The notes below the pieces were generated by a model. It ran no database searches. It was not told the origin of the DNA and worked only from the letters and a program-made list of their open reading frames with translations. A DNA stretch of 64,000 nt from Methanobacteriota archaeon (GTDB lineage: Archaea > Thermoplasmatota > Thermoplasmata > SG8-5 > JAGLSY01). Position numbers and translations under genes: made by a program. Shown here one piece after another: positions 2,291-51,367 of the stretch (the stretch's first letter is position 1; each line of letters begins with the position of its first letter). The DNA lies in the NCBI GenBank assembly GCA_020697715.1, contig JAEHCO010000002.1:252667-316666 (forward strand). The letters run 5' to 3'.

Positions 2291-4132
2291 ATGGTACAAC
2301 TACACGATCAGACACTGAGGGATGCGCACCAATCTATTTTGGCAACGAGAATGAGAACAGAAGACATGCTTCCAATAGCACAGAAAATGGATGAGATAGG
2401 ATTCTGGTCCATGGAAGTATGGGGCGGAGCAACATATGATGTTCCGATAAGGTTCCTTAATGAGGATCCCTGGGAGCGCCTGAGAGCTCTCAGAGAAGCC
2501 ATGCCAAATACAAAACTGCAGATGCTTGAAAGAGCCATGAACATCGTGGCATATTGGAATTTCCCTGATGAAGTTGTTCATAAATTCATAGGACTGGCCA
2601 AGAAGAACGGTTGTGATTATTTCCGTATCTTCGACGCTCTTAATGATCTTAGGAACATGAAGACACCGATAGAGGCCACATTGGAGGCTGGAGGTCATGC
2701 ACAGGGTTGTGTCAGTTACACTATCTCCCCGGTTCATACTGTGGAGAGATATGTTTCAGATCTTATTCAATTGGAAAAATGGGGTTGCCAGAGTGTTTGT
2801 ATAAAGGACATGGCTGGAATGATCGCTCCACAGGTTGCATATGATATTATCAAGGGTTACAAGGACTCTGGAGCAAAGGCACCTATCGATCTGCACAGCC
2901 ACTATACCAGTGGAATGACTGGCATGGCATACTGGGCAGCTTGTGAGGCTGGCGTTGATGTGCTCGACACGTCCATGTCACCTATATCTGGCGGTACTGG
3001 CGGAGTTCCAACAGAAAGTGTTGTGGCCGCATTAAAAGGCACAAAATACGATACTGGGTACGACATGCACCAGCTTATCGAGATCAGAAAATACTTCATG
3101 GAAGTATGGCACAAATACAGACATCTGATTCGTCAGGAAGCTATGAAGGTCGATCCATCTGTCATGGTTCATCAGATACCTGGTGGAATGCTTTCCAATC
3201 TGGTCAGCCAGCTGGAAATGCAGGGAGCTACTGACAAATATTATGATGTTCTTGATGAGACAGCCCGCGTTCGTGAAGAAATGGGATACCCACCACTTGT
3301 TACTCCAACGAGTCAGGTTGTTGGAGTCCAGTCTGTTATGAATGTTCTTTTCGGCAGATATAAGAAAATACCCAAGGAGACAGTCGATTATTGTAAGGGT
3401 ATGTATGGTAAATCACCAGCACCAATTAAGCCAGAGATCATGGAATTGGTTCTTGGACCTAACTGGAAGGATGAGGTCATCGACTGCAGGCCAGCAGACC
3501 TTGTGGAAAAGGATATGTGGGATGTCAGAAAGAAAGAACTGGCAGAGCTTGCTCCAAGTATCGATATGACCGATGAGAACATTATGACATACACTTTGTT
3601 CCCAGAGGTTGGACTCAAGTTCTTGAAGGGTGAGGCCATACCAGAATTCACATCCGATCAATTACCATTGAACAAGGACCATGACATGACAAGAGCCATG
3701 GTGAAGTCCTTCTTCCCCGAGCTGCCAGCTGTTTATATCGAATCAGAGCCACCAGAGGCAAGGACAGTAGGCGGACCAGCACCAATACCAACTGAGTTCA
3801 ATGTCGAGGTTGACGGAGACTTCTTTGAGGTGAAGGTGGAACCAACAGGTGGCTATGTTACATCTGCTGGTGGACCCGCTGGAGCACCATGTTCAACAGG
3901 CGGACCTGATCCAAGTGCACCCGGAATGCAGAAGACTGGATGCCAGGGAAATCTTTGGAAGCTCACGGTCAAGGTCGGCGACAAGGTCAGCAAGGGCGAT
4001 GTCGTCGCTATTCTCGAGGTCATGAAGATGGAATCCAATATCGAATCAGACTTCGATGGCGAGGTCAAAGAGATCTACGCCAATGAGGGAGACATGGTCA
4101 AGACTGGCGATGTCATGATGAGGATCGAGTGA
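2291..4132 (+). CDS. pycB: Pyruvate carboxylase subunit B (carboxyltransferase plus biotin carrier; oxaloacetate decarboxylase alpha family)
   Basis: TLRDAHQS, WGGATYD, IKDMAG, HQIPGGMLSNL and GYPPLVTPTSQ motifs; C-terminal EVMKM biotinylation motif. Confidence 0.88.
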   Translation: MVQLHDQTLRDAHQSILATRMRTEDMLPIAQKMDEIGFWSMEVWGGATYDVPIRFLNEDPWERLRALREAMPNTKLQMLERAMNIVAYWNFPDEVVHKFIGLAKKNGCDYFRIFDALNDLRNMKTPIEATLEAGGHAQGCVSYTISPVHTVERYVSDLIQLEKWGCQSVCIKDMAGMIAPQVAYDIIKGYKDSGAKAPIDLHSHYTSGMTGMAYWAACEAGVDVLDTSMSPISGGTGGVPTESVVAALKGTKYDTGYDMHQLIEIRKYFMEVWHKYRHLIRQEAMKVDPSVMVHQIPGGMLSNLVSQLEMQGATDKYYDVLDETARVREEMGYPPLVTPTSQVVGVQSVMNVLFGRYKKIPKETVDYCKGMYGKSPAPIKPEIMELVLGPNWKDEVIDCRPADLVEKDMWDVRKKELAELAPSIDMTDENIMTYTLFPEVGLKFLKGEAIPEFTSDQLPLNKDHDMTRAMVKSFFPELPAVYIESEPPEARTVGGPAPIPTEFNVEVDGDFFEVKVEPTGGYVTSAGGPAGAPCSTGGPDPSAPGMQKTGCQGNLWKLTVKVGDKVSKGDVVAILEVMKMESNIESDFDGEVKEIYANEGDMVKTGDVMMRIE

Positions 4133-11431: not shown

Positions 11432-11506
11432 GGGCGCGTAGCCTAGCCAGGATATGGCGCTAGCCTTCTAAGCTAGAAGCCAGGGGTTCGAATCCCCTCG
11501 CGTCCG
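11432..11506 (+). tRNA. tRNA-Arg(TCT)
   Basis: Acceptor GGGCGCG/CGCGTCC+G; anticodon arm CTAGC-CTTCTAA-GCTAG; T-arm AGGGG-TTCGAAT-CCCCT. Confidence 0.95.
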
Positions 11507-11529
11507 TTTTTTATTTTTATATAATTAGA

Positions 11530-11643
11530 GGGCGCTAGGTGGATTCGAACAGGGTTCGATGAGATTTTTCTGAATGAAATGGAGAAAAAGCGAGCAAGAC
11601 CGGGATGCTGGAGGCGGACAGGTCGTTGATCCCCTCGCGTCCG
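11530..11643 (+). repeat. tRNA-linked structured unit (type A) ending in a copy of the tRNA-Arg 3' end
   Basis: GGATTCGAAC at 11541; ATCCCCTCGCGTCCG at 11629-11643 is identical to 11492-11506; body similar to the units at tRNA-Leu and tRNA-Gly. Confidence 0.85.
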
Positions 11644-24929: not shown

Positions 24930-25973
24930 TCAAATATGATCGTAGATATTCGCATTGGCCCCACCATGGCCAATGTCTGTTTCTATCTGCTTTAATAACA
25001 ATATTCTTTTGAATGTAGATGGGTGGGTGGACATGAACTCCATCCTGGCGCGCCCACTCTTTGCTTGTTCTTCCATGGCCTTCTGAAGTTCCCTGTCATC
25101 CAGAACTCCATCACCATCCAGATCATACTTGTTCTTGTTCTGCATGATACTGGCGATCTCTCTTTTCGCACTGACCGGATCTCCGATATAAAAGGCTCTG
25201 GCGGCTCCTGGTTTTTCATTTGACAATGAAAGTCCGAAAGTTATCTTGGCAAGTGCCGAGCTGAGGCTGTGCGGGTCGCCCGTGGCTACCGCGGAATAGG
25301 AATCCGCGTAGAACTCTCTCTGCCTTGAAAGTTTCAAAATAAGTAGCTGTGATATGAAATATACCGCATAGCTGATGATCGCGATAATGATGATCGCTCC
25401 AGCATCCCTGTTGCGCCTTCCTCCCCAGAGGAAGCTTCTGGCCAGCATCCAGGCCAGCATGGGTATCGCACTGACGACCGTCATGACAACGACGTCATTG
25501 TGTCTAAGATGGCCGATCTCATGCGCGAGCACACCCTTGACCTCTCTCTGGTTCAGCTTTTCCAGAAGCCCGGTGTGAACTGCCAGAGTTGAACTCTTCC
25601 TTGACCTTCCGAACACGAAAGCATTGGGTGTTGGATCATTGGAAATAGCTAGTTTCGGCATTGGAATGTCCGCTTGCTTTGCCAATTGACTAACTTCTTG
25701 CTCAAGCCAGGGATTTTCACCGGGTTTTAGATACTGAAGACGCGATCCCCATCGTATTATACCCGGGGATATCGCCCATTGTATGAGCATGAATATGCCG
25801 ACAAAGAAGAATATCAAAATAAGCTGGCCGATAATATTGACGGTTCCATTGTAATACCACATGATGAATTCGAATATCAGCATGATGAACACGAACAGAA
25901 GTCCGAATATCATGATGAGGGTGAGAGCCATGCTCCTTTTGAGTGCGCCAAGTGAGGCCATTGTGTCCGGCAT
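24930..25973 (-). CDS. htpX: Zinc metalloprotease HtpX (M48)
   Basis: PNAFVFG, VLAHEIGH, SRQREFYAD and STHP motifs. Confidence 0.9.
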   Translation of the reverse strand: MPDTMASLGALKRSMALTLIMIFGLLFVFIMLIFEFIMWYYNGTVNIIGQLILIFFFVGIFMLIQWAISPGIIRWGSRLQYLKPGENPWLEQEVSQLAKQADIPMPKLAISNDPTPNAFVFGRSRKSSTLAVHTGLLEKLNQREVKGVLAHEIGHLRHNDVVVMTVVSAIPMLAWMLARSFLWGGRRNRDAGAIIIIAIISYAVYFISQLLILKLSRQREFYADSYSAVATGDPHSLSSALAKITFGLSLSNEKPGAARAFYIGDPVSAKREIASIMQNKNKYDLDGDGVLDDRELQKAMEEQAKSGRARMEFMSTHPSTFKRILLLKQIETDIGHGGANANIYDHI

Positions 25974-26074
25974 GATAATTTCAAGATATAAGGATATCGG
26001 CGGAAAATATACACAATCCAATCAAACATTATATAAACATCTTGATTTTACAGGGTTTACCCAAAGAACACCAT

Positions 26075-26158
26075 GCGGGGATAGCCAAGCCTGGTCAACG
26101 GCGCTAGATTCAGGGTCTAGTTCTTAGTGATTCGCCGGTTCGAATCCGGTTCCCCGCA
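26075..26158 (+). tRNA. tRNA-Leu(CAG)
   Basis: Acceptor GCGGGGA/TCCCCGC+A; anticodon arm CTAGA-TTCAGGG-TCTAG; long variable arm; T-arm GCCGG-TTCGAAT-CCGGT. Confidence 0.95.
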
Positions 26159-26170
26159 TTTTTCATTATA

Positions 26171-26258
26171 GGATTCGAACGAAGTTCGATCGAGAATTTA
26201 TTCATAAATTCGAGAGAGCACCGCAACGAAGTGTAGGTGCGAAATCCGGTTCCCCGCA
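26171..26258 (+). repeat. tRNA-linked structured unit 1 (type A)
   Basis: Starts GGATTCGAAC-GAA-GTTCGA; ends AATCCGGTTCCCCGCA (26243-26258, identical to 26143-26158). Confidence 0.85.
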
Positions 26259-26270
26259 CCTTGTTTTATA

Positions 26271-26416
26271 GGATTCGATAGTAGTAGTCGGTTGCCGTAA
26301 ACCCACCATTTTCATTCAGCTAAACTCGAAGCCAGACGTATGCTTCGAGAATTTGGGTTTATGGCCTACGATGGGAACATCATGCCAGGGGCATATCGTT
26401 CACACGGTTCCCCGCA
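26271..26416 (+). repeat. tRNA-linked structured unit 2 (type B)
   Basis: Starts GGATTCGA; ends CGGTTCCCCGCA (26405-26416); homologous to unit 3. Confidence 0.85.
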
Positions 26417-26496
26417 TTTTTCATTTTTAGATGCGACTTCACCCATAGAACCCACGCATCTATTTTATCAAACTCATTTATGTGTTTGATTCGATA

Positions 26497-26647
26497 GGAT
26501 TCGAAAGTAGTAAACGGTTGCCGTATGCTCATCGAAAAATATTCATCTGAACTCGAAGCAAGACGTAAGCTTCGAGATTTTGAGCATATGGTCTACGGAT
26601 GTGAACATCATGCCAAAGGCATATCGTTCACACGGTTCCCCGCACCA
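26497..26647 (+). repeat. tRNA-linked structured unit 3 (type B), ends in CCA
   Basis: Starts GGATTCGAA; ends CGGTTCCCCGCACCA (26633-26647). Confidence 0.85.
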
Positions 26648-26747
26648 TTTTCTCTATTTTCTAACATCATAGAGGCGGAGAGTTTAGACGAAAGTGATAT
26701 AAGCAATACTTTCGATTTACTTAGGCAAGCGGAGGAGTGGCTGAATA

Positions 26748-27191
26748 ATGGATAAAAAAGGTAAGACGGTTCTATTTGCCAGTATCTTACTAATTATCAT
26801 AATTATCATTGCTGTTTTTATTTCGATTACTGTTTATCAAGACACAGATGATATATTATTAACAGTATCAAAAACTTCTGCGGGGACACATTCTGTAGAT
26901 CTAACGGTTTCAGGCATCAGACCAAATGGTACAGACTCGGTATCATTAGATGATGTTGTAGCCTGGCTCTATTATAATGAATCTCAAACAATGATAAAAT
27001 TGAATGAGGTTTCCCATTTTAAAGACGATTATGTCAACTTCACCTACATCGATATTAATGATAGCCAGACTATTGATGTTGGAGATGTATTCTCTATAGA
27101 ATATCTCAAAGCAGGAGAATTAGGTGTTGATATTGTAAAAGAAGACATTGCTATCCTTACCTTTATAGAGTATTATTCAACCACTCCGTAG
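26748..27191 (+). CDS. Membrane-anchored, possibly pilin-like surface protein
   Basis: MDKKG plus hydrophobic helix; C-terminal DINDSQTIDVGD; GGAG RBS. Confidence 0.6.
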   Translation: MDKKGKTVLFASILLIIIIIIAVFISITVYQDTDDILLTVSKTSAGTHSVDLTVSGIRPNGTDSVSLDDVVAWLYYNESQTMIKLNEVSHFKDDYVNFTYIDINDSQTIDVGDVFSIEYLKAGELGVDIVKEDIAILTFIEYYSTTP

Positions 27192-27254
27192 CGTTGTCTT
27201 TCTGAGGAGTGAGAACGCTTTTCGACGAGTAATAAAAATAGGCTCCTGCCAGAG

Positions 27255-28184
27255 TTAATTAAAGATCTTCTTGATCATCCACTGAGCGTCGAACTTTTCC
27301 AGGTCATCATATTCCTGTCCAGTTCCTACAAAGATAATGGGCTTTCCAACTGCATGTGCAATTGACAATGCGGCTCCGCCCTTTGCATCTGCATCGATCT
27401 TGGTAAGTATGGCCGCATCCAATCCAATGGCATCTTCGAACTTCTTGGCTTGCTCCACTGCATCATTTCCTGCAAGCGAGTCACCAACGAATATCACCAT
27501 GTCTGGATTAACAACTCTGTTAATTTTCTTCATCTCATCCATCAAGTTGGAGTTCGTCTGCATCCTGCCAGCAGTGTCTATGAGAACAACATCCTTGAAT
27601 CTCGCTCTGGCATGCTCCACTGCATCGAATGCCACCGCGGCCGGGTCTCCGCCCGCCTGGTGTTTTATTATCTTGAATCCGAGGTTCTCGGAATGAATTG
27701 TCAATTGTTCTATGGCTCCAGCTCTGAATGTGTCGCCCGCTGCCAATACGCAGGACTTGCCCTGCTTCTTCAATCGATGGCCTATCCTCGCAATAGAAGT
27801 TGTCTTGCCAGTCCCGTTCACTCCAACGAACATCAGTGTAACTGGTTTTTCATGGCTGTTGATGAACTCATCAAAATCAATGGCCTCTGTGTCCAGTATC
27901 TTGGTAAGCGAGACCTTCAGGCTTTCATTGATAGACTTTTCAAAATCAGATCCTCTCTTCACTCGCTTATTGATGAGATCTGCCTTTAAATTCTCCTTGA
28001 GCTCTTCTATGACCTCGATCGCGACATCTGATTCTAGAAGTCCCACTTCTAGATCCCATAAAATGTCATCCAGCTTGCTTTCTTTTATGCGCTTTCCGTC
28101 ATCTTCCGATATAGCTTCTGCTGAGAATTCTTCCTTGGTCTGCTTTTTGAACCCATCCAGCTTGTCTTTGAGGAATTTGAACAT
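27255..28184 (-). CDS. ftsY: Signal recognition particle receptor
   Basis: GVNGTGKTT, DTFRAGA, DTAGR and TKIDADAKGG motifs. Confidence 0.96.
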   Translation of the reverse strand: MFKFLKDKLDGFKKQTKEEFSAEAISEDDGKRIKESKLDDILWDLEVGLLESDVAIEVIEELKENLKADLINKRVKRGSDFEKSINESLKVSLTKILDTEAIDFDEFINSHEKPVTLMFVGVNGTGKTTSIARIGHRLKKQGKSCVLAAGDTFRAGAIEQLTIHSENLGFKIIKHQAGGDPAAVAFDAVEHARARFKDVVLIDTAGRMQTNSNLMDEMKKINRVVNPDMVIFVGDSLAGNDAVEQAKKFEDAIGLDAAILTKIDADAKGGAALSIAHAVGKPIIFVGTGQEYDDLEKFDAQWMIKKIFN

Positions 28185-50974: not shown

Positions 50975-51077
50975 ATGCAGGTGTCGGGATCCATTACTTG
51001 TTGCCAGGGACAACAAGTAACGCTCGTTTTTTCTTCACTATTTTCAGAAAAAACTCGTCGAACTCCGTTCGAATCCC
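50975..51077 (-). repeat. tRNA-linked structured unit (type A) ending in a copy of the tRNA-Gly 3' end
   Basis: Minus strand starts GGGATTCGAAC-GGA-GTTCGA; ATGCAGGTGTCGGGAT at 50975-50990 is identical to 51091-51106. Confidence 0.85.
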
Positions 51078-51091
51078 TATATAAAAATATA

Positions 51092-51165
51092 TGCAGGTGT
51101 CGGGATTCGAACCCGAGTGATTGGCTTGGAAGGCCAAGATCATAGCCAGGCTAGATCACACCTGC
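51092..51165 (-). tRNA. tRNA-Gly(TCC)
   Basis: Acceptor GCAGGTG/CACCTGC+A; anticodon arm TTGGC-CTTCCAA-GCCAA; T-arm TCGGG-TTCGAAT-CCCGA. Confidence 0.95.
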
Positions 51166-51367
51166 ATTCAGACCCAAGTTCGATATTCTTAAGTCAAACG
51201 TGGATTTTGATGGTCGATTATGTGGCCGATATTGTGACCGATATTCTACTGGGAAACCAATAATAGATAAAAACCTATCGAATCATCTGCAGTGCACGAT
51301 AAAGGGGGGGTATTAGGGTCCCTCAGCTAAAGTGCAAGAACAGATCATGATGAGTGTGTTTGAGCCT

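Follow-up and report, generated by a model that had tools for sequence, protein, structure and literature searches.

A family of structured interspersed elements in one archaeal order, with two tandem copies behind a tRNA-Leu gene

Structured interspersed repeats are well known in bacteria. REP units, for example, are single palindromes of 20–40 nt that are near-identical within a genome, and the attC sites of integrons are routinely found with covariance models. No archaeal counterpart of the structured interspersed repeats was found in open-access text. The subject here is a 64,000-nt stretch of DNA from a Methanobacteriota archaeon (assembly GCA_020697715.1, contig JAEHCO010000002.1, positions 252,667 to 316,666 of the forward strand; "the window"), in which a tRNA-Leu(CAG) gene is followed by two similar units, B1 and B2. 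Both are copies, in tandem, of a single member of a family of structured interspersed elements that is so far undescribed and is here designated R1. The genome the window comes from (G000) is an assembly of 2.12 Mb in 34 contigs, 93.8% complete.

The pneumococcal BOX element is built of boxA, boxB and boxC and spans 67–637 bp; both BOX and RUP have terminal inverted repeats and target duplication (PMC3049150). REPs tagged with GTAG have been described (PMC3733652), and one R1 subfamily likewise has GTAG before a hairpin. Classes of RAYT, the transposases associated with REPs, are given as not seen in Archaea, where only IS200-type Y1 proteins are reported (PMC6006769), and archaeal RNAs associated with IS200/IS605 are structured and expressed (PMC12558985).

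A first-pass annotation, made from the sequence alone, had proposed that the two units hold a selected structure of ~145 nt. The features, all on the + strand, are as follows (MFE, minimum free energy).

26074..26159, +, tRNA-Leu(CAG) gene (ARAGORN; 49.6 bits with the Rfam tRNA model)
26160..26258, +, unit A, a tRNA-trailing unit of 99 nt (repeat family D1)
26259..26416, +, type-B unit 1 (B1): trailer, AGGATTCGAT, R1 element, tRNA 3'-end copy
26282-26408, +, R1 match in B1 (G000:C22:278948-279074), 107.4 bits
26294..26365, +, B1 domain 1 (sequence, MFE fold, family covariation)
26294-26305 with 26354-26365, +, B1 stem P1, GCCGTAAACCCA paired with TGGGTTTATGGC
26306-26324, +, B1 5' internal loop
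26325-26332 with 26342-26349, +, B1 stem P2
26375..26401, +, B1 hairpin 2, tRNA-linked variant GAAC-ATC-ATGCC-AGG-GGCAT-ATC-GTTC
26405..26416, +, copy of the tRNA-Leu 3' end, CGGTTCCCCGCA, followed by T-rich trailer
26417..26493, +, long-form trailer between B1 and B2, 77 nt
26494..26644, +, type-B unit 2 (B2): AGGATTCGAA, R1 element, tRNA 3'-end copy (26633-26644)
26508-26636, +, R1 match in B2 (G000:C22:279174-279302), 109.7 bits
26520..26592, +, B2 domain 1 (sequence, MFE fold, covariation over 16 copies)
26520-26531 with 26581-26592, +, B2 stem P1, GCCGTATGCTCA paired with TGAGCATATGGT
26552-26559 with 26569-26576, +, B2 stem P2
26603..26629, +, B2 hairpin 2, GAAC-ATC-ATGCC-AAA-GGCAT-ATC-GTTC

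Every stretch that the first-pass annotation had named as pairing in P1 lies at the coordinates it gave, and three P1 pairs do change on both strands between B1 and B2 as it claimed (A-T to T-A, A-T to G-C and C-G to T-A); in a fourth pair only one side differs (G-C to G.T). Its inner hairpin, CTCGAAGC-9 nt-GCTTCGAG (26325-26349 and 26552-26576), and its terminal hairpin, GAAC-ATC-ATGCC-3 nt-GGCAT-ATC-GTTC (26375-26401 and 26603-26629), are both present, and differences between the units are mainly in loops, as it said, and are otherwise compensated in stems. Two proposals need amending. An outer GTAG/CTAC pairing is present in both units, but in only 2 of the 16 aligned copies described below, these same two, so that the family gives it no support. 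The structure within the proposed ~145-nt motif is selected, but the last 12 nt of each unit (26405-26416 and 26633-26644) are a copy of the tRNA-Leu 3' end and do not belong to it.

The case for selection is carried by covariation across the family. BLAST of B2 against its own genome turned up further copies, one behind tRNA-Leu(TAG) and several distant from any tRNA; a simple pattern search of the same genome gave 13 places, 12 of them judged real. A scan of genome contigs with a 16-nt leader motif yielded at least 115 loci, most of them chance matches in bacteria; three of six archaeal loci inspected are real copies, all from one archaeal metagenome-assembled genome (MAG) record. Alignment A1 holds 16 copies, 13 from G000 and three from that MAG record. 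From A1, RNAalifold derives 23 pairs, which make up P1, P2 and the inner part of hairpin 2; 14 of them have double changes. Including the outer stem of that hairpin gives 28 pairs in all, of which 15 have double changes, and 93.5% of 448 cells pair; none of 500 shuffles attains any of four measures, and partners slid along the alignment pair at 29–41%.

The covariance model R1 has 15 strong matches in G000, all at E <= 1.7e-9. Alignment A3 consists of 51 matches (49 distinct) from 18 other genomes, aligned to the model. In it 94.8% of 1358 cells pair and 21 of the 28 pairs have double changes, counts inflated by the fitting of A3 to the model's structure, and again none of 500 shuffles attains any of the measures, here five. 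RNAalifold by itself recovers all four helices from A3 (25 pairs, 19 with double changes). The first-pass observation is strengthened by these further copies. The claim of a selected structure is thus supported by family-wide covariation, over the 16 copies of A1 and the 49 of A3: the structure is real and selected, and what selection keeps in R1 is the fold, not the sequence.

The core of R1, ~130 nt, comprises a short conserved leader, a 12-bp P1, an asymmetric internal loop, an 8-bp P2 and a second, imperfect hairpin. Within P1, a loop of ~20 nt on the 5' side and one of 4 nt on the 3' side flank the P2 hairpin. The middle 5 bp of P1 vary freely, yet are always compensated. In family f1 of the order, to which G000 belongs, P1 reads GCCGTA-N5-CA; in family f4 it reads GCCATGCACC, GTTGCATGCC or GCCGCATACC. 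P2 occurs as CTCGAAGC, CGCAGAGN, CGCGGCGA, ATCAAAGC or CTCTGAAC, and every variant of either stem has its matching partner strand. P1 is internal in the element, with conserved sequence outside it. Copies fall into leader subfamilies: GTAG is found in the AGTAGTCGGTT subfamily (9 of 16 rows of A1) and is missing from the AACACC and ACGTGGTAGACC subfamilies. Conservation is highest in hairpin 2, where a U.U mismatch between covarying pairs is never lost; in B1 it is the central U.U of a 3x3 internal loop. Hairpin 2 also stands alone in intergenic DNA (G000:C11:524392-524466, C28:60269-60353 and C22:249800-249915). In either orientation such a solo copy is a hairpin followed by a short U run, and could be a two-way transcript end signal.

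Two additions to this core occur. An optional 5' hairpin module, present in 14 of 26 inspected copies (C22:45094 is one in G000), brings the length to ~230–250 nt; its three stems are nested, covary and surround a purine-rich internal loop, itself conserved, with CGAGAAC opposite GAUGAA. A K-turn was considered for this module and for hairpin 2, and rejected by eye: the loops are symmetric and purine-rich or a single U.U, not an asymmetric GA kink. The other addition is an insert of ~80 nt after GCCGT of P1, at one fixed point of the 5' strand in at least four copies. This insert (GGAGTAAAT ... CTAATCGC-loop-GCGATTAG; G000:C28:68731-68858, G000:C34:23476-23620, L208:790-880 and L247) makes a three-way junction of P1; one element seems here to lie within another.

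At E <= 1e-5, R1 was found in 18 of 22 genomes of the order, with 1–93 matches each and roughly 430 altogether, so that copy number differs up to 90-fold between genomes. All five genomes of f1 (including G000) and all 13 of f4 have it, and none of the two in f2 or the two in f3; 19 genomes from 15 further families of the class gave no R1 match. Across the 41 genomes compared, R1 is confined to two families of one archaeal order. On viral contigs, searched with two patterns, 19 loci share short motifs, none of which is an R1 match. McrA was found in none of the four genomes of the genus, which is therefore probably not methanogenic.

The copies come and go. Among 150 listed matches, at least 12 have their start no more than 175 nt from that of a contig, as repeats that break assemblies do. 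Of five dispersed loci of G000 compared with their counterparts in G003, a genome of the same genus, three are without the element there and two with it: domain 1 is missing at the counterpart of C11:162626, the whole element at that of C33:14705 and the element at that of C28:9926; C11:274628 has a near-identical copy (in G001, the copy at this site is of another leader subfamily); and at C11:69464 the G003 copy is another variant, which differs in the sequences of P1 and P2 and carries an 80-nt insert. Of 12 copies unlinked to tRNA, ten are not flanked by any direct repeat as long as 8 nt, and the remaining two have one 8-nt match each, inside element sequence. Copies are solitary or in gene-free tandems among housekeeping genes, and head-to-tail arrays of R1 occur.

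No Rfam family accounts for these features. Rfam 15 was searched with the window from 25000 to 28000 at E up to 10, with the whole window at gathering score and with five further copies at E up to 1. Between 25000 and 28000 only tRNA scored above the gathering score, and the matches overlapping the units reached 19.5 bits (threshold 65) and 16.3 bits (threshold 100); the whole window gave three tRNAs and nothing else; the five other copies gave one chance-level match of 22.1 bits (threshold 59). The known self-cleaving ribozyme families are in Rfam, and none of them matched the units; no IS605-type or omega-RNA family of Rfam matches R1 either. The first-pass annotation could not place the motif in a known RNA class, and this holds for the units and for the five further copies, none of which is matched by an Rfam 15 family. 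In open-access text, no description of the R1 family was found under archaeal REP/RAYT, tRNA-Leu MITEs (miniature inverted-repeat transposable elements), T-loop introns, partial tRNA copies or Thermoplasmata repeats.

Several specific candidates were rejected. H/ACA and C/D guide small RNAs (sRNAs) were set aside by eye, there being no conserved ACA and no GA motif in P2; as for guide RNAs more generally, the longest complements of the 5' loops elsewhere in G000 are 12–14 nt, which was judged chance level. Against a REP/RAYT system, the R1 core is ~130 nt with four helices and many P1 and P2 variants within G000, and the sole Y1 gene of that genome (G000:C1:16359-16709) has neither R1 on its contig nor R1-like hairpins alongside. 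R1 is no classical MITE, since it lacks terminal inverted repeats and target-site duplication. For IS200/IS605 or omega RNA, the TnpB domain has no match in G000 and the presence of Y1 does not track R1 across the 41 genomes. For attC, there are no gene cassette arrays; G000 has one tyrosine recombinase, and the integron-specific integrase was not searched for. A casposon duplication was judged by the criteria of PMC4779613: Cas1 was found in none of the four genomes of the genus, and the repeated stretch extends 8–12 nt upstream of CGCA. The Y1 gene has IS200-like motifs by eye. It adjoins a tRNA-Phe gene with a partial tRNA-Phe duplicate between them (L200, G000:C1:13500-19500, ~2806-3650), which suggests that this locus is an integrated element.

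As a whole, these results are best explained by an undescribed family of structured interspersed elements with a reading at the RNA level, to which a probability of roughly 0.5 is given. That the folded molecule is RNA made from the given strand is put at a little better than even. Folding bears out the stems without settling the strand: the MFE folds of B1 and B2 contain P1 and P2, and that of B2 also the terminal hairpin, with z-scores of -2.40 for B1 (3 of 200 shuffles fold as well) and -3.93 for B2 (0 of 200), but the opposite strand of B1 has a similar energy (z -2.26), so that energy alone cannot choose the strand. Wobble pairs are more informative. Over 24 solid pairs, G.U or U.G occurs 31 times and A.C or C.A six times, and one further pair is G.U in 29 cases, A-U in 15, G-C in four and A.C in none. 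This excess of G.U over A.C assigns the fold to the given strand; it fits RNA, and is also compatible with one particular DNA strand. The wobble pattern, the multi-domain build and the conserved purine-rich loops together favor a role at the RNA level. The RNA could be a small stable structured RNA, or a module within transcripts bound by proteins through the conserved mismatch and the purine-rich internal loops, while the DNA copies would multiply by recombination or by a mobilizing activity.

A number of points weigh against this reading. G.T wobble is tolerated in DNA hairpins as well, and conservation of structure only, with covariation, also marks folded single-stranded DNA (ssDNA) recombination sites, integron attC among them. 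Neither a promoter nor a terminator of archaeal type could be located confidently. In G000, at 93.8% completeness, a search found no reverse transcriptase, which leaves no visible enzyme for spread through RNA. Copies stand in every orientation relative to their neighbors, and among the 15 copies not behind tRNA-Leu there are six whose hairpin 2 reaches up to or into the 3' end of a convergent gene. Swings in copy number, gain and loss, nested insertions and tandem arrays are the behavior of mobile DNA, unlike that of ordinary sRNA genes. Besides the inflation of its counts, A3 includes one row identical to a training row, and two of its source genomes, G004 and G021, share R1 matches at identical contig coordinates and so are not independent. 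These two genomes are placed in different families, yet have equal bit scores at the identical coordinates; they appear to share contigs, and their binning or taxonomic placement is doubtful.

The main rival reading is that R1 works as folded ssDNA, as a non-autonomous mobile or recombination element whose hairpins are recognized by shape (like REP/RAYT, IS200/IS605 or attC), the covariation then reflecting the requirements of a recombinase rather than of an RNA. The 10 of 12 dispersed copies without target-site duplication fit this, as do the range of 1–93 copies, presence and absence at orthologous sites, the matches at contig starts, the tandem arrays and the ~80-nt insert that at least four copies carry at the same position in P1. 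The hairpins themselves are strand-specific and imperfect, with conserved mismatches and, in one subfamily, GTAG on their 5' side, and the sole transposase-like gene found in G000 is that of a Y1 HUH transposase (TnpB and reverse transcriptase were not found). That gene, however, has no R1 copies on either side; f2 and f3, both without R1, do have Y1 genes, and none was found in the high-copy genomes G002, G004 and G018 (72–83% complete). The three domains of R1, 130–250 nt with purine-rich loops, contrast with the much simpler 20- to 40-nt hairpins of REPs and IS200 ends, and its stems vary widely within one genome, where REP families are uniform in sequence. As noted, only IS200-type Y1 proteins are reported from Archaea (PMC6006769). 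An ssDNA element is taken seriously but considered on the unlikely side.

Ten of the 31 tRNA genes of G000 (ARAGORN) have a copy of their own last 12 nt, with at most one mismatch, beginning within 150 nt downstream, and both tRNA-Leu genes have further 3'-end copies farther out. For tRNA-Leu(CAG), the last 12–16 nt recur at the end of each downstream unit. Such trailing units are ~70–150 nt long; those of tRNA-Arg(TCT) and tRNA-Gly(TCC) are also in the window (11432-11643, +, and 50975-51166, -), and others are on G000 C11 and C28. The Gly, Arg, Lys and both Leu units have one architecture: in the 5' part a trailer, a T-arm antisense with tRNA-specific stem bases and a small hairpin, and in the 3' part CGAG, a hairpin, CGAGC, another hairpin, and the 3' strands of T-stem and acceptor. 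Unit A, whose type stands behind the tRNA-Gly, Arg, Lys and Leu(TAG) genes as well, runs from a T-rich trailer through AGGATTCGAAC (T-arm antisense) and three small hairpins joined by CGAG...CGAGA to AATCCGGTTCCCCGCA, a copy of tRNA positions 58-73, the last 16 nt. Its fold resembles a cloverleaf but has a non-significant z-score (-1.36). A strict sequence motif for A-type units was found only in the genus (4 of 41 genomes), and is too strict for mapping the phenomenon.

Every B unit ends in a copy of its own tRNA's 3' end, down to lineage-specific changes in the acceptor (CCCTGCA in G004; CCTCGCA at tRNA-Leu(TAG) of G003), and B and A bodies are framed alike, by AGGATTCGA and (C)CGGTTCCCCGCA. 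The body slot is filled by R1 behind tRNA-Leu(CAG), tRNA-Leu(TAG) and, in degenerate form, tRNA-Met. In G003 the arrangement of tRNA-Leu(CAG), A and B is conserved, with a single B and then a different gene; in G004, B follows tRNA-Leu(CAG) directly. It is probable that at tRNA-Leu R1 fills the body slot of a trailing unit and that B1 and B2 arose by unequal recombination between the framing repeats. The unit would consist of trailer, T-arm antisense, body and tRNA 3'-end copy, and the framing repeats, of ~35–45 nt, of tRNA 3' end, T-rich trailer and AGGATTCGA. The B unit of G003 is 87.6% identical to B1 and 86.3% to B2, which are 83.4% identical to each other; its P1 block is as in B1, and its leader, P2 loop and hairpin flank as in B2. 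A single B with the B1 version of P1 in G003 implies that the duplication is specific to this lineage, with the three compensated pairs changed in B2. The B2 block TGCTC is also in other copies of G000, so that the change is as plausibly due to recombination with a relative already compensated as to six point substitutions.

Some details of the array and its relatives may be recorded here. The long-form trailer (26417-26493) has a hairpin, AGATGCG...CGCATCT, inside it and terminates in GATTCGATAGGATTCGAA. It is itself a repeat, with at least 17 BLAST hits (query positions 1504-1600) on other contigs of G001, G002 and G003, and the segment stands twice behind tRNA-Leu(TAG) in G003. Directly 3' of the tRNA-end copy of B2 is a CCA (26645-26647). 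Some unit-end copies are followed by bases that the tRNA gene itself does not encode, CCA in B2 and the Cys unit and CC in Leu unit A and the Glu unit; the Cys and Glu units are on G000:C11, and several other tRNA genes of G000 encode CCA. A short stretch 3' of B2 (26688-26739) matches other contigs of G003 and G004, and may be another small repeat. Between its B unit and ftsY, G003 has a ~3.8-kb open reading frame (ORF; L207, G003:C46:43500-49500) whose translation looks by eye like a large surface protein rich in repeats; at this place G000 has just B2 and a 147-aa ORF. The tRNA-Ala unit is a hairpin whose 5' strand complements the copied end; in that of tRNA-Ala(GGC) of G000 there is A3-U70 where the tRNA has G3.U70. 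One or two hairpin units also stand behind tRNA-Leu(CAG) in G005 of f2 (L238) and G006 of f3 (L239); their 3' strand is the tRNA T-stem and acceptor 3' strand and their 5' strand its complement, and they look like mimics of the acceptor/T minihelix.

A bolder extension of the RNA-level reading takes R1 for a self-propagating structured archaeal RNA family and the trailing units for an undescribed type of module, T-arm antisense plus tRNA 3'-end copy; as a whole, this is doubtful. A state of the kind it calls for is found in f4, where G012 (L240) and G007 (L241) have the T-loop of tRNA-Leu(CAG) interrupted (TTCGAA, ~150 nt, AATCCGG) by an insert built like unit A. G007 has a second, partial insert and a 3'-end copy downstream, and G010, of the same genus in f4, has an intact tRNA-Leu(CAG) and no unit. 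Deletion between two TTCGAA sites would fuse a module into the tRNA gene and create a T-loop intron of this kind. If so, the order preserves intermediate steps in the birth of a tRNA intron, and the trailing module might be a fail-safe 3' exon for read-through transcripts.

The same interrupted genes, G012 and G007, could be read the other way around: the B bodies would be, or derive from, intron-like T-loop inserts, and the units would be pseudo 3' exons (5' half of the T-loop, insert, 3' strands of T-stem and acceptor) whose fold is kept for the splicing endonuclease. The frames shared by B and A bodies agree with this, and a published model ties gain of tRNA introns to integration of mobile elements (PMC3293823). 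The f4 inserts are not R1 elements, however, and 12 of the 15 strong R1 copies of G000 adjoin no piece of tRNA. The interrupted tRNA-Leu genes form the T-stem and an extended helix in their MFE folds; no canonical bulge-helix-bulge motif is seen there, nor was one evident at the B unit borders or the base of P1, which were inspected by eye only. Such a derivation is improbable.

It is more improbable still that the array is debris of integrated elements or casposons at the tRNA-Leu 3' end, with the repeats as att sites or target duplications and the hairpins as remnants of element ends. The 3' ends of tRNA genes are classic integration sites, where partial tRNA copies are left (PMC9897764); casposons of Methanosarcina insert at the tRNA-Leu 3' end and make 14-bp duplications that begin with CGCA, and terminal repeats are also known as solo copies (PMC4779613). 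The repeated segment of the window does contain CGCA and an AT-rich trailer, but the units measure 99–228 nt and not kilobases, and unit A has no terminal inverted repeats by eye. The order A then B is conserved at two tRNA-Leu genes and in two species, and in G004 tRNA-Leu(CAG) is followed directly by B. The array has no integrase or Cas1 gene nearby; Cas1 was found in none of the four genomes of the genus, and the single tyrosine recombinase gene found in G000 is on another contig. Covariation across 65 copies would also be left without explanation. A local tandem duplication with chance palindromes and no function, in keeping with the 83% identity of the neighboring B1 and B2 and their only moderately unusual folding energies (z -2.4 and -3.9), is contradicted by compensated changes in all four helices across 18 genomes and has a negligible chance of being right.

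With four compensated helices in 18 genomes, R1 is a strong candidate for a new class of structured nucleic acid in Archaea, and the evidence is enough for a curated family and for directed experiments. The setting may outweigh the element: about a third of the tRNA genes of G000 have trailing units with their own 3'-end copy, and the body like that of unit A in the T-loop of f4 offers a concrete, testable route to the non-canonical introns and fragments of archaeal tRNA genes.

Among described systems, REP/BIME with RAYT, ERIC and BOX resemble R1 in being short, non-coding and intergenic, with stable hairpins and a strand-specific shape; REP/BIME, ERIC and BOX are also modular, form tandem or mosaic arrays, vary greatly in copy number from one relative to the next and are mostly without a transposase of their own. 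R1 differs from the bacterial REP, ERIC and BOX in being archaeal, in having three domains and in stems that covary instead of being uniform in sequence; from BOX and RUP in having neither terminal inverted repeats nor target duplication; and from REP/RAYT in that no RAYT gene is flanked by it. Integron attC sites share with it a variable sequence, conservation of the fold of one strand, and unpaired or mismatched bases as marks, but no R and L boxes were recognized in R1. The ends of IS200/IS605 and their derivatives likewise have hairpins, strand specificity and no target duplication; unlike these and omega-RNA-like elements, R1 has no TnpB in G000 as far as found, and the Y1 gene adjoins no R1 copy. 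Partial tRNA copies derived from integration are like the array of the window in being direct repeats of a tRNA 3' end downstream of an intact gene. Unlike integration scars, the insert is only 60–115 nt, and bodies recur behind many tRNAs, each with that tRNA's own end and T-stem antisense. With the non-canonical introns of archaeal tRNA genes, finally, the connection is through f4, where a body of this kind lies within the T-loop of tRNA-Leu(CAG); in the window, by contrast, the tRNA is intact and the body stands behind it.

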